Positions 27,358 to 31,909 of a stretch of DNA of 64,000 bases are shown here, piece by piece. This DNA is from Rhodobacterales bacterium (GTDB taxonomy: Bacteria > Pseudomonadota > Alphaproteobacteria > Rhodobacterales > Rhodobacteraceae): NCBI GenBank assembly GCA_038231775.1, contig JBBRKS010000001.1, positions 22,938 to 86,937 on the forward strand, read 5' to 3'. The notes under the pieces are model-generated. The model was not told where the DNA came from and ran no database searches. It saw only the letters and a program-made list of their open reading frames with translations. Both the position numbers and the translations under genes were made by a program. The stretch's first letter is position 1; each line of letters opens with the position of its first letter.

Positions 27358-28170
27358 CTACTTGCCCCCACCTGCCGTCTCTCCACCCGACCGTGTCAGG
27401 TAATAGGCACCAAGGATCGGCAGGAAGGTCACCGCGAACACGACCATGGCCACCACGTTGGTGACAGGGCGTTGGCGCGGGCGGATCAGCTCGTCCAGCA
27501 TCCAGATCGGCAGGGTTTTTGAGGCGGCTCCGGCTCCGGCGGTGAAGGTGGTGACGATGACTTCGTCGAAGCTGAGGGCGAAGGCGAGCATTCCGCCGGC
27601 CAACAGGGCGGTGGCAAGGTTGGGCAGCAGGATGTGGCGGAAGGTCTGGAAGGCGTTGGCACCAAGGTCGGCAGACGCCTCAAGAATCGCACCGGACAGG
27701 CGGCGAAAGCGGGCGACGGCGTTGTTGTAGACGATGACGATGCAGAAGGTTGCATGGCCAAGCACGATGGTGATCCACGAAAAATCAAGATGCAGCAGGG
27801 GGATGGCGGACCGCAGGGCGATGCCGGTGATTACGCCGGGCAAGGCGATGGGCAGGATGATCAGCAGGGACAACTGGTCGCGACCCCAGAATTTTGCCCC
27901 GCTCATGGCGGCGGAAATCAGCGTGCCAAGGATCAGGGCAAGGCAGGTGGACAGCAGTGCGATCTGACATGACAGGATCAGAGGCGGCCAGATGTCGGCA
28001 CGGTTCCAGGCGATGGCGAACCATTTGGTGGTCAGGCCGGGCGGCGGGAAGGCGAAAGAGCGCTCTTCAATTGTGAAGGCGTATAGGAAGATCAACAGGA
28101 TAGGCAGGTGCAGGAAGGCGAGGCCCCCGGCTGCGGCGAGTTTCAGGGGGAGGGGCGCGTTAGAGGGCAT
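27358..28170 (-). CDS. Polyamine-type ABC permease (PotC/YdcV-like)
   Basis: EASADLGA EAA loop; FALSFDE. Confidence 0.93.
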   Translation of the reverse strand: MPSNAPLPLKLAAAGGLAFLHLPILLIFLYAFTIEERSFAFPPPGLTTKWFAIAWNRADIWPPLILSCQIALLSTCLALILGTLISAAMSGAKFWGRDQLSLLIILPIALPGVITGIALRSAIPLLHLDFSWITIVLGHATFCIVIVYNNAVARFRRLSGAILEASADLGANAFQTFRHILLPNLATALLAGGMLAFALSFDEVIVTTFTAGAGAASKTLPIWMLDELIRPRQRPVTNVVAMVVFAVTFLPILGAYYLTRSGGETAGGGK

Positions 28171-29083
28171 CGAACGCGCCCGCCTTGCGGGCGAGGGTCA
28201 GGTAAACCAGCATGATCAGGATCGGCACCACGGCGAAAGCGGCGGCCAAAGGCACGTTTCCGGCGGTGCCTTGCAGCTGATAGACCGCCATGCCGATGTA
28301 GCTGGCCGAATTGCCGATGATCTGCGGGATGATGTAATCGCCCAACGTCAGCGAAAAGGTAAAGATTGACCCCGCGATGATGCCCGGCAAGGCAAGGGGC
28401 AGCGTGACCGTCCAGAAGGTTTGCCGTGCGGTGGCGCCAAGATCGGCTGCGGCCTCAATCATCGAGGTGGGCACCCGTTCCAGCGCGGCCTGCATAGGCA
28501 GGATCATATAGGGCAGCCAGACATAGCAGAACACGGTGAAAGTACCGAGATACGAGGTGGAAAGCGAGTTCCCCCCAATCCCCGGCAACACGAGGGCGGC
28601 GTTCAAAAGCCAGTCGGTGTGGGTGGTGGTGGCGACCCAGGTCACAATGCCCTCTTTGGCGAGGATCAGTTTGAAGGCGTAGACCTTGACGAGATAGCTG
28701 CTCCACAACGGCAGCATGACGCCAAGGTAGAAGGCGGCTTTCCAGCGGCCTTTGGCGTAGCGGGCGGCGTAGTAGGCGATCGGGAAGGCAAGGATTGTGG
28801 AAGCGAGGGTGACGGCTGTGGCCATCAGAAGGGTGCGGGTGATGATCGACAGGTTGGAGGGTGTGAACAGCTGCGCGTAGGTTTTGAGGGTGAATTCCGG
28901 GATGATCAGGCCGGAGAAATCGTCGAGCGAATAGAAGGACTGCAGCAACAGGGCTGCGAGCGAGCCGAGATAGATGAGGCCGAGCCAGAGGAGCGGCGGG
29001 GTCAACAGGAGGGCCAGGAGGAGTTTGGGGTGGCGCCAGAACAGCGTGGTAAGGTGGTCGGGCAGGGATCTGGTGGGTGTCAT
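28160..29083 (-). CDS. Polyamine-type ABC permease (PotB/YdcU-like)
   Basis: EAAADLGA; SYLVKVYA; LGDYIIP. Confidence 0.93.
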   Translation of the reverse strand: MTPTRSLPDHLTTLFWRHPKLLLALLLTPPLLWLGLIYLGSLAALLLQSFYSLDDFSGLIIPEFTLKTYAQLFTPSNLSIITRTLLMATAVTLASTILAFPIAYYAARYAKGRWKAAFYLGVMLPLWSSYLVKVYAFKLILAKEGIVTWVATTTHTDWLLNAALVLPGIGGNSLSTSYLGTFTVFCYVWLPYMILPMQAALERVPTSMIEAAADLGATARQTFWTVTLPLALPGIIAGSIFTFSLTLGDYIIPQIIGNSASYIGMAVYQLQGTAGNVPLAAAFAVVPILIMLVYLTLARKAGAFDAL

Positions 29084-29336
29084 TTGGAGGAGGCGCCGGC
29101 ACGAATTTTCTGCGAAAATTCAGGGGATTTGGGGGCATGGATTTTCTGCGAAAATTCAGCGGGTTCGGTTAGGCGAATTTTCTGCGAAAATTCGACGGTA
29201 TTGGCTTGATGAATTTTCTGCGAAAATTCGGCAAGGGTGCGGGGTCGATTTTTCTGCGAAAAATCGGGGGGAGGGATGGCCCCGGTGTCCTGCACAAAAG
29301 CAAAAGCCTCCGGCGGGAGTATTTGGCAAAGAGCAA

Positions 29337-29340
<4 letters not shown>
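29080..29340 (-). CDS. Candidate 86-aa repeat ORF (5 x EFSQK, 12-aa period)
   Basis: ATG overlaps the ATPase TGA; its TGA overlaps the permease ATG; no internal stop. Translation is unproven. Confidence 0.35.
29103..29265. repeat. Array of five 19-bp palindromes at a 36-bp period
   Basis: GAATTTTC-TGC-GAAAATTC-type units at 29103, 29139, 29175, 29211 and 29247; four different 17-nt linkers. Confidence 0.97.
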
Positions 29341-30374
<1,034 letters not shown>

Positions 30375-30576
30375 GGTGGGGATTTGGGCACCGTGGATTG
30401 GGGTGGCTTGAACTTGAGCGTCAAAGGCTTGGGGCGGCAGTGTTACGCGTGGCGACGGTCAGAGAATCGAGCAATGGCCGGGCTTCGGGCGTACGCTTTA
30501 TTCGACTACCGGGCAAAGGGTGCCTCTGCCCGGCCTTATGGATGTCAGCCGCTCGCCAATCTGTGGCCTTGCTTGG

Positions 30577-31734
30577 TCAGTTGCCGCCGACCACGGCCAT
30601 ATAGTCGGTCACCCATTGGGCGTAGGGGATGCATGCACCGTCACCCGCTGCGCAATTGGCGATGGGGGTCGTCCAGAAGTGGATTTTGTCAAACGCCTCC
30701 GCCCCGTTGTCCTTGCACCCGGCATCGGTTTGCTGACCTGATCCGTCGGTGCAGGCGGTGGGCACAACGGGAACTGACCCGAACCAGACCGACAGGTCGG
30801 ATTGCAGGTTTGAATTCAGCGTGTGTTCCATCCACTGATAGGCGCAGTTCGGGTGCGGCGCGTCGGTCGCCATCATCGTGGTGTCAGACCAGCCGGTCGC
30901 ACCTTCCTCCGGGATGGTTGAGGCAATCGGCGCCTCTTCCTGTTTCAGCAGATTGACCTGATAGGGCCACGAGGTCGAGGCGACGATACCTTCGTTCTTG
31001 AAATCATCGGTCTGGACGGTCGAATCGCTCCAATATTTCGACACAAGTTTGCGTTGGGCGCGCAACAGGTCCAGCACGGCGGCATATTGCGGTGGGGTCA
31101 GTTCATAGGGGTTGGTGATGCCAAGGTCGGGCTTGTGGGCCATCAGGTACAAGGCTGCATCGGCCAGATAGATCGGGCCGGCATAGGCCTCGACCCGGCC
31201 GGAATTGGGCTTTCCGTCGGGCAAATCGCCCGCCTCGAACACCACGGACCACGATTTGGGCGGCTCTTTGAAGGTGTCGGTGTTGTACATCAGCACGTTC
31301 GGCCCCCACTGGTAGGGCACGCCGTAATGCTTGCCATCCACCGTGAACCACGCCCCATCTTTCAGGCGCGGATCGACCTTGTCCCACGACGGGATAAGGG
31401 CAGTATTGATTTCCTGCACCTTCTTGCCTGCGACCAGCCGCAACGACGCATCGCCAGAGGCGGTCACAAGGTCAAAGCCGCCCTGGTTCATCAGGCTGAC
31501 CATTTCATCCGAGGTGCCAGCGGTCTTGACGTTGACCTTGCAGCCAGAGGTCGCCTCAAACTTGGTAATCCAGTCAAACGTCTTGTCGCTTTCGCCGCGC
31601 TCCATATAGCCCGGCCAGGCGACGATATCGACCTCACCCTCACCCGCACCGATGGCGGTGACCTGAGCCAGAAGCGGTGATGTCGCAAGGGCCAAGGCCA
31701 GAAGGCCCACACCCATCAGTTTTGTGGTTTGCAT
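30577..31734 (-). CDS. Polyamine-type ABC substrate-binding protein (YdcS/PotD-like)
   Basis: Signal peptide, VAWPGY, VPYQWG, EGATGWSDT; CAGGGAG SD. Confidence 0.92.
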   Translation of the reverse strand: MQTTKLMGVGLLALALATSPLLAQVTAIGAGEGEVDIVAWPGYMERGESDKTFDWITKFEATSGCKVNVKTAGTSDEMVSLMNQGGFDLVTASGDASLRLVAGKKVQEINTALIPSWDKVDPRLKDGAWFTVDGKHYGVPYQWGPNVLMYNTDTFKEPPKSWSVVFEAGDLPDGKPNSGRVEAYAGPIYLADAALYLMAHKPDLGITNPYELTPPQYAAVLDLLRAQRKLVSKYWSDSTVQTDDFKNEGIVASTSWPYQVNLLKQEEAPIASTIPEEGATGWSDTTMMATDAPHPNCAYQWMEHTLNSNLQSDLSVWFGSVPVVPTACTDGSGQQTDAGCKDNGAEAFDKIHFWTTPIANCAAGDGACIPYAQWVTDYMAVVGGN

Positions 31735-31909
31735 TGCAGGCTCCCTGATCAAATGCGCGGACTGCGCGGTGCCGCTTGGCGCGGGCTTATGATCAAATTA
31801 GACAAGGCAGGGCAGGACGCAAGGGGGATTCTTGTGGGGCTGGCGTTGCAGGCATGGGGTTTCACAGCCCGTGCTCCCCCGACGGGATATGCGCACAGCG
31901 GGGATGCGA

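Follow-up and report, generated by a model that had tools for sequence, protein, structure and literature searches.

Two bodies of earlier work bear on the structure described here. Mycobacterial interspersed repetitive units (MIRUs) are, as related in PMC3184786 and PMC12548453 after Supply et al. (1997, Mol Microbiol 26:991), repeats that lie between cistrons, contain open reading frames (ORFs) overlapping the flanking genes and show tetranucleotide direct repeats; in these two accounts, insertion at start codons is proposed to couple the internal ORF to the gene at -4 nt. Termination-reinitiation coupling, according to PMC10666635, is almost abolished by an intergenic distance of about 20 nt, and the same paper describes stop/start overlaps as enriched between subunits of complexes. 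Here we analysed an 86-codon ORF that bridges the ATPase and permease genes of an ATP-binding cassette (ABC) importer operon in the Rhodobacterales bacterium of assembly GCA_038231775.1 (contig JBBRKS010000001.1, positions 22,938 to 86,937, the whole analysed stretch of 64,000 nt being called the window). Comparison with related genomes makes it likely that this ORF, which we call the relay ORF, is a selected, MIRU-like translational relay made from repeats resembling repetitive extragenic palindromic (REP) elements, with termination-reinitiation at both of its ends.

The relay ORF runs on the minus strand from 29340 to 29080, a distance of 261 nt with ATGA at either end and 253 nt between the two copies. 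The first ATGA (29340-29337) holds the stop codon of the ATPase and the second (29083-29080) holds the start codon of permease 1, so that three reading frames meet as follows:

29337..30458, minus strand, ABC transporter ATPase (Pfam ABC_tran 9.6e-35 and TOBE_2; stop codon TGA 29339-29337; the coordinates are those of the open frame, the start being uncertain)
29080..29340, minus strand, relay (bridging) ORF of 86 codons plus stop (ATG 29340-29338, TGA 29082-29080)
28160..29083, minus strand, ABC permease 1 (Pfam BPD_transp_1; ATG 29083-29081)

An earlier note made from this DNA had described the duplicated ATGA, holding the ATPase stop and the permease start, and a stop-free 253 nt between the copies encoding an 86-codon ORF with five hairpins. 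Its coordinates proved exact, and the open frame with its five copies of a 19-nt hairpin, here named REP1, was confirmed. The product begins MIALCQILPPEAFAFVQDTG (longer form MIALCQILPPEA) and ends EFSQKIRAGASSK, and its frame is distinct from those of both the ATPase and the permease. The bridging frame alone is open among the three sense frames of the spacer, the other two carrying one and two stops. ORFs of 55–262 codons span the spacer in several frames on both strands, and an open frame of 86 codons is by itself unremarkable in DNA of 61% GC. The significance of the bridging ORF comes from comparison with relatives, and not from this one sequence.

We compared 101 homologous ATPase-permease junctions, 93 of them unique, with Rhizobium outgroups included. 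Compact junctions account for 49 of the 93, and 48 of these are direct overlaps (42 NTGA and 6 TGATG, the Rhizobium outgroups among them), which bears out the earlier proposal that the ancestral junction was a direct stop/start overlap. The remaining 44 have spacers of 54–548 nt, and every one keeps a relay ORF coupled at both ends. The geometry is standard in 42 of them: the relay start overlaps the ATPase stop (as ATGA, GTGA, TTGA, TGATG or TAATG in different relatives), the frame is open, and the relay stop overlaps the start in the permease frame. Two cultured strains have a relay at this junction, Cypionkella aquatica NBRC 111766 in a spacer of 112 nt and Tabrizicola sp. SY72 in one of 64 nt. 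Of the two exceptions, the first (L051, from genome G044, which is among the closest relatives) is a chain of ATGA, 6 codons, ATGA, 39 codons and ATGA; here the junction is duplicated, with GCCGTGTCATGATC occurring twice, 17 nt apart, which looks like a repair restoring the relay phase. The second (L054) has an ORF of 179 codons whose start lies 3 nt beyond the ATPase stop and whose end falls in the permease ATGA.

Over about 2,400 spacer codons per frame, the two other frames contain 38 and 33 stops and the relay frame contains two, both of which come from these alternative geometries. The relay spacers take 34 distinct lengths; 39/42 spacers are congruent to 1 mod 3, and the other 3/42 are congruent to 0 and have an 8-nt overlap. 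None of the 93 junctions has an insert of ≥40 nt joined to the permease in frame. On a tree built from the ATPase and permease proteins, at least 13 changes between long and compact states are needed, at least 10 of them forced by well-supported branches; with at least 10 independent state changes, the relay pattern is not the legacy of one ancestor.

The second locus gave the same picture. A gene-finder scan of the host genome revealed two further REP1 arrays inside doubly coupled ORFs, on contigs C42 and C52. The first (C42:22301-22457) is a relay ORF of 51 codons with 3-4 REP1 hairpins and ATGA at both ends, between the large subunit of a molybdopterin oxidoreductase and its 4Fe-4S subunit. 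The second (C52:17456-17594) is a relay ORF of 45 codons that follows an ABC permease (ATGA overlap) and precedes a protein of 150 residues (TTG start, TTGA overlap); it carries three strict REP1 hairpins and a fourth with a diverged stem, in both orientations. For the C42-type junction we assembled 80 unique homologous sites. All 64 compact sites are bare ATGA overlaps. The 16 long spacers measure 61-205 nt, and every one has a length congruent to 1 mod 3, carries NTGA at either end and stays open in the relay frame as far as the TGA overlapping the downstream start. Filled and empty sites at this junction differ by exactly the insert and one ATGA, as illustrated by ...gcgcATGAcccagcttcc (empty, L138) and ...gggtATGA[148 nt]ATGAcccagcttcc (filled, L137). 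The inserts are arrays of lineage-specific AT-rich hairpins, without the 35-nt repeat (motif A) that accompanies REP1 at the ATPase-permease junction.

The two loci together comprise about 170 related junctions, of which 60 are filled by long spacers (44 and 16). Of the 60, 55 (39 and 16) have the one phase in which both ends read ATGA, and the relay stop overlaps the downstream start in 59. The earlier suggestion that permease translation may depend on ribosomes crossing the insert thereby gains strong comparative support, since 44/44 and 16/16 long spacers keep a coupled ORF. These counts also decide the case of an open frame that is a chance by-product of GC-rich, stop-poor repeats and has no role, the permease initiating independently. 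Such a by-product would fit the long ORFs seen in several frames on both strands, and the REP1 hairpin is itself stop-free in six frames; but the 38 and 33 stops against two, the shared phase of 55 spacers and the repeated state changes already contradict it, and we regard it as very improbable.

Across lineages, phase and openness are retained and the peptide is not. Different lineages have unrelated relay peptides, with lengths between about 20 and 179 residues. Motif A gives CQILPPEA in one set of lineages and NIPAGGS in another; REP1 yields EFSQKI, NFRRKF or FFCEKP, at times in a single ORF; and hairpins with TGA in one frame are always read in another. Because the frame in which identical repeat DNA is read changes from lineage to lineage, the relay peptide is not conserved, and this switching of frame in shared DNA points to selection on openness and phase, not on the product. 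The same observations weigh on the idea that the 86-residue product, with its five EFSQKI-type repeats of 12 residues, is a functional small protein of the transporter. An exact 12-codon period with all five hairpins in one frame is what such a protein might show, but the peptide matched no Pfam family, the closest relatives have 0-2 hairpins at the junction, and the relatives' peptides are unrelated and draw on shared DNA in different frames; a functional small protein is scarcely credible on this evidence. At the level of sequence, the comparisons establish how the junction is built, what its ancestral state was, that relays arose independently several times and that phase and openness are under purifying selection, and we infer from them that the ORF is translated and that termination-reinitiation is the reason for its retention.

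The insert in the window is a mosaic of two dispersed families, the REP-like hairpin REP1 and the 35-nt motif A:

29306..29336, minus strand, motif A half-copy (TTGCTCTTTGCCAAATACTCCCGCCGGAGGC), directly after the first ATGA and common to the eight-member clade around the host genome
29247..29265, minus strand, REP1 hairpin 1 (GATTTTTCGCAGAAAAATC; both arms changed, stem still paired)
29211..29229, minus strand, REP1 hairpin 2 (GAATTTTCGCAGAAAATTC)
29175..29193, minus strand, REP1 hairpin 3 (GAATTTTCGCAGAAAATTC)
29139..29157, minus strand, REP1 hairpin 4 (GAATTTTCGCAGAAAATCC)
29103..29121, minus strand, REP1 hairpin 5 (GAATTTTCGCAGAAAATTC)

The five 19-nt hairpins start at 29265, 29229, 29193, 29157 and 29121, with a period of exactly 36 nt or 12 codons, and the hairpin motif had 0 matches in 100 shuffles of the window. 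In the host genome, REP1 gives 116 matches at ≤2 mismatches and 128 hairpins in 79 clusters (35 flanked by convergent, 27 by co-directional and 2 by divergent genes), with singletons and pairs dispersed genome-wide in both orientations. Spacing within clusters is 25-97 nt and does not favour multiples of 3. Variants alter both arms and keep the pairing (GATTTTTC..GAAAAATC, GAGTTTTC..GAAAACTC and GGATTTTC..GAAAATCC). A single REP1 hairpin is AT-rich and weak (8 bp, -4.1 kcal/mol) and has no stop codon in any of six frames, which is true of about 10% of hairpins matched in composition; folding of the entire spacer gives -73 kcal/mol (z = -3.75). No other REP1 array in the genome is as large as that in the window or has all its copies oriented alike, and the only four 36-nt REP1 spacings in the genome all lie within it.

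The hairpins of the array are near-identical, whereas the 17-nt spacers between them are only 5-9/17 identical and no more alike than chance. A recent tandem duplication was considered as the source of the 36-nt period and is not supported, given this low identity of the spacers; Tandem Repeats Finder reported a 72-nt period with 80% match, driven by the hairpins. The frame constraint accounts for a multiple of 3, and not for the spacing always being 36. Regular palindromes with unique spacers at an exact 36-nt period also call to mind a miniature array of the CRISPR kind, or a protein-binding array. The hairpin is, however, dispersed over 79 clusters in both orientations, including singletons and pairs; the repeat (19 nt) and spacer (17 nt) are too short, unique CRISPR spacers being at least 25 nt; Cas1 (PF01867) had no match in the host genome; and the array sits inside an operon junction where it is putatively translated. 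On the dispersed repeat, the short units and the lack of a Cas1 match we rejected the CRISPR-like reading, and an array of either kind seems to us extremely unlikely. An Rfam scan of 28700-29700 returned no known RNA family, only a sub-threshold chance match (ALIL, 18.6 bits against a threshold of 50).

The genome contains about 35 copies of motif A, in single copies or inverted pairs, mostly located in ordinary intergenic DNA and often followed by a REP1 hairpin. Motif A (ATTTGCTCTTTGCCAAATACTCCCGCCGGAGGC) recurs (e.g. at C8:38541, C152:6222, C91:7496 and C220:3699-3776) both in a composite, where a REP1 hairpin lies 3-5 nt downstream, and in inverted pairs, which would form hairpins of about 100 nt; several copies abut the TGA of the upstream gene (TGAtttgctc). 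One mosaic mobile element is a possible reading of these arrangements. At the C42-type locus (L141-L200), Paracoccaceae lineages carry different, similarly built AT-rich hairpin families, e.g. AAATTTTTTCGAAAAAATTT, GAATTCTGACGCAGAATTC and GTTTTCTGCGTCAGAAAAC, which suggests a fast-evolving superfamily of weak hairpin repeats in Paracoccaceae. The transposase associated with REP elements (REP-associated tyrosine transposase, RAYT, or Y1; PF01797) had no match in the 93%-complete host assembly, and control genomes did match; an origin of REP1 as a RAYT-mobilised REP is unproven.

The comparison also shows how the insert was assembled. Long spacers at the ATPase-permease junction are filled by repeats that differ by lineage, namely motif A in either orientation, a GC-rich hairpin (GGTGGGCatccGCCCACC), REP1 and other elements. 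The earlier note had viewed the 257-bp segment as one element inserted into a bare ATGA with a 4-bp target duplication, and this was not supported in that form. The outcome that the note had itself named as refuting was observed, in that the closest relatives without the array still have spacers of 91-274 nt with other repeats, and the only block in common is the 35-nt motif A. Counting loop and stem variants, the closest relatives have 0-2 REP1 copies at this junction, and expansion to five hairpins is private to this lineage. Finally, the base before TGA differs between the two copies in 26/55 filled sites (for example TGATG upstream and ATGA downstream), and two cases that look young (L189 and L051) have a duplication of 14-15 nt, not 4, its match continuing for 11-14 nt past TGA. 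ATGA at both ends is what coupling requires, so its presence is not evidence of a 4-bp target-site duplication. An extended target-site duplication was also considered and is absent in most junctions, the 13 nt upstream having a mean identity of 5.25 against a null of 4.78.

These results bear on a further explanation, in which a specialised mobile element targets start codons or ATGA overlaps, makes a 4-bp duplication and brings its own phased ORF, so that the relay would be built into the element and not selected at the locus. Insertions exactly on the junction at two loci, many independent times, are what such an element would produce, as are C42-type sites that differ by exactly the insert and ATGA and a hairpin that is stop-free in six frames where only about 10% of matched hairpins are; MIRUs, moreover, are described in PMC3184786 and PMC12548453 with tetranucleotide direct repeats and ORFs overlapping flanking genes. 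However, most copies of both families lie in ordinary intergenic DNA, with 35/79 REP1 clusters between convergent genes and only 3 clusters being relays; inside relays the repeats occur in both orientations and all reading frames; and REP1 spacing shows no preference for multiples of 3. The duplicated flank, as noted, is not a fixed 4 bp, the spacers are mosaics of several families built stepwise, and no Y1/RAYT transposase was found in the genome. We consider a specialised element a somewhat improbable source of the pattern; as an account of origin, it is compatible with a relay function.

We propose the following course of events for the relay. Ancestrally, the ATPase and permease would have been linked by an overlapping ATGA stop/start, at which a terminating ribosome restarts at once on the next gene. 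Dispersed repeats would then have entered the junction stepwise, the 35-nt motif A block common to the surrounding clade probably first and the REP-like AT-rich hairpins next, with expansion to five copies in this lineage only. As coupling collapses over distance, an insert would break it unless the insert is itself a coupled cistron; an insert would persist only if the hand-over were restored, with a start on the ATPase stop, a stop-free frame throughout and a stop on the permease start. The 86-codon peptide would on this scheme be a by-product, and the selected trait would be the passage of ribosomes across the weak hairpins to terminate on the permease start codon.

A related explanation keeps translation of the spacer but gives it another purpose: it would mainly keep the mRNA covered by ribosomes against Rho-dependent termination or RNase, with delivery to the permease secondary. 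The spacer mRNA is C-rich and G-poor between the hairpins, in which it resembles a Rho loading site, and the requirement for an open frame would be identical. But shielding needs neither the relay stop on the downstream start, found in 59/60 cases, nor the relay start on the upstream stop, and a stop a few tens of nucleotides before the permease start would suffice, which is never seen in long spacers. The strict overlap at the downstream end favours ribosome hand-over, and we think shielding from Rho quite unlikely to be the main role.

Four points weigh against the relay reading. First, junctions within one clade are not independent observations. Second, the translation signals of the permease say little. 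The sequence upstream of the permease 1 ATG is gcctcctccaaATG (adjoining bases gcctcctccaa), with no GGAG, GAGG or AGGA motif resembling a Shine-Dalgarno (SD) sequence. The earlier note had reported that this start has no SD and is preceded by an anti-SD-like CCTCCTCC; the sequence is present as described, and nothing indicates that it functions as an anti-SD. An SD-like motif precedes 7/44 relay-fed permease starts and 35% of host-genome genes with a single candidate start, and with so low a baseline its absence is weak evidence for dependence on coupling. Third, only 3 of about 27 REP1 clusters between co-directional genes are relays genome-wide, which is not clearly above background; this background is noisy, comprising about 150 relay-like ORFs, of which many are real genes that our home-made gene finder overlooked. 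Without a genome-wide REP1 relay signal, the effect is specific to formerly overlapping junctions. Fourth, the ATPase has no canonical start codon, and if it were untranslated, the relay would have nothing to relay.

The ATPase frame contains no ATG, GTG or TTG from the upstream stop to an ATG two codons before Walker A (30269-30461, minus strand). The ATPases of relatives have an ATG 3-5 codons before the conserved AVEFRAV, and the host genome has ACG (30374-30372) at about that place; this could be a start-codon mutation, a non-canonical start, or an error in the consensus or assembly of the metagenome-assembled genome. The host assembly (4.4 Mb, 61% GC, 93% complete) comes from a freshwater Paracoccaceae/Rhodobacteraceae bacterium whose nearest named relatives are Cypionkella, Pseudorhodobacter and Tabrizicola. 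The importer operon consists of four genes on the minus strand, for a solute-binding protein, the ATPase, permease 1 and permease 2, of which the outer two are:

30577..31752, minus strand, periplasmic solute-binding protein, operon gene 1 (ORF; Pfam SBP_bac_8, SBP_bac_1 and SBP_bac_6)
27358..28170, minus strand, ABC permease 2 (Pfam BPD_transp_1; 11-nt overlap of its start with the end of permease 1)

Discussion of repeat insertions in operons usually treats them as terminators, stabilisers of mRNA or polar mutations. The junctions compared here amount to a natural experiment, with 60 filled junctions at two loci, at least 10 state changes at the first and matching empty sites, and they show that an overlapping stop/start signal tolerates an insertion only where the insert forms a relay cistron coupled at both ends, most likely for ribosome hand-over. 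This agrees with the experimental evidence that intergenic distance is not bridged by termination-reinitiation coupling. For annotation, short, non-conserved, repeat-filled and probably translated ORFs are to be expected at such junctions, and should neither be discarded nor called protein genes. The cultured strains Cypionkella aquatica NBRC 111766 and Tabrizicola sp. SY72 are suited to direct study. More speculatively, and in our view doubtfully, the AT-rich hairpins of Paracoccaceae might be 'translatable' selfish DNA that favours overlapping junctions of complex-encoding operons, the number of hairpins (0-5 among species at the ATPase-permease junction) acting as an evolvable dial of ribosome delivery and subunit stoichiometry and the 36-nt period, with its homogenised hairpins and diverged spacers, reflecting a dedicated addition of whole-codon units.

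Among known systems, the overlaps at both relay ends are those of termination-reinitiation gene pairs (Huber et al. 2019, PMC6728339; Huber et al. 2023, PMC10666635), with 4 nt or 1 nt shared. The flanking genes also belong to the class in which overlaps are described as enriched, encoding subunits of heteromeric complexes (ABC ATPase and permease; oxidoreductase large and Fe-S subunits). Unlike in simple pairs of this kind, there would be two coupling events here, one after the other, by way of a middle ORF without a function of its own. A similar dependence on translation and not on product is found for comEB-comEC of Bacillus subtilis (bioRxiv 10.1101/2020.12.30.424838), where the ORF product is dispensable and translation of the ORF is needed downstream, and for synthetic 'nonsense peptide' leader ORFs (PMC13255528), as we propose for the relay. 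Those ORFs, in contrast, are not made of repeats, use an internal ribosome-binding site and have no double stop/start overlap. Rickettsia palindromic elements (RPEs; Ogata et al. 2000, cited in PMC3184786) are likewise, as that citation presents them, translatable palindromic repeats tolerated in expressed regions; they lie inside protein genes and become part of the host protein, whereas the insert here is a separate cistron whose frame differs from both neighbours.

As repeats, the REP1 hairpins resemble the REP elements and bacterial interspersed mosaic elements (BIMEs) of gamma-proteobacteria, being short imperfect palindromes in more than 100 copies, mostly extragenic and after the 3' ends of genes; both form mixed-orientation clusters and include variants in which the two stem arms are changed and pairing is preserved. 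They differ from RAYT-mobilised REP/BIME in the weak AT-rich stem (-4.1 kcal/mol) within a genome of 61% GC and in that no Y1_Tnp was found in the 93%-complete assembly. We know of no description of REP elements translated within a relay ORF, and in literature combining REP elements or MITEs (small transposable elements with inverted repeats) with translational coupling we found no description of such relays for REP-type elements.

The closest likeness remains that to MIRUs. In both cases, according to the accounts in PMC3184786 and PMC12548453, a short repeat lies between co-directional cistrons of an operon, the ends of its ORF overlap the flanking stop and start at -4 nt, relatives have empty sites, and the two ends carry a repeated tetranucleotide; also shared is the benefit proposed, namely a minimal impact on expression with a ribosome delivered to the downstream gene. 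The host phylum and the structure are unrelated, with AT-rich 8-bp hairpins and a second family here, so that homology in sequence is not expected, and the likeness is functional and set by the published descriptions. A family of the MIRU kind would be expected mainly at intercistronic sites and oriented with the genes, and the MIRU ORF is described as a property of the repeat unit. The repeats here are generalists found mostly in ordinary intergenic DNA, with no fixed frame or orientation, REP1 forms relays in only 3/79 clusters, and one long ORF runs across a mosaic of units. The evidence here is comparative, drawn from 60 junctions at two loci with at least 10 independent state changes, and through it the MIRU hypothesis gains support well outside mycobacteria.

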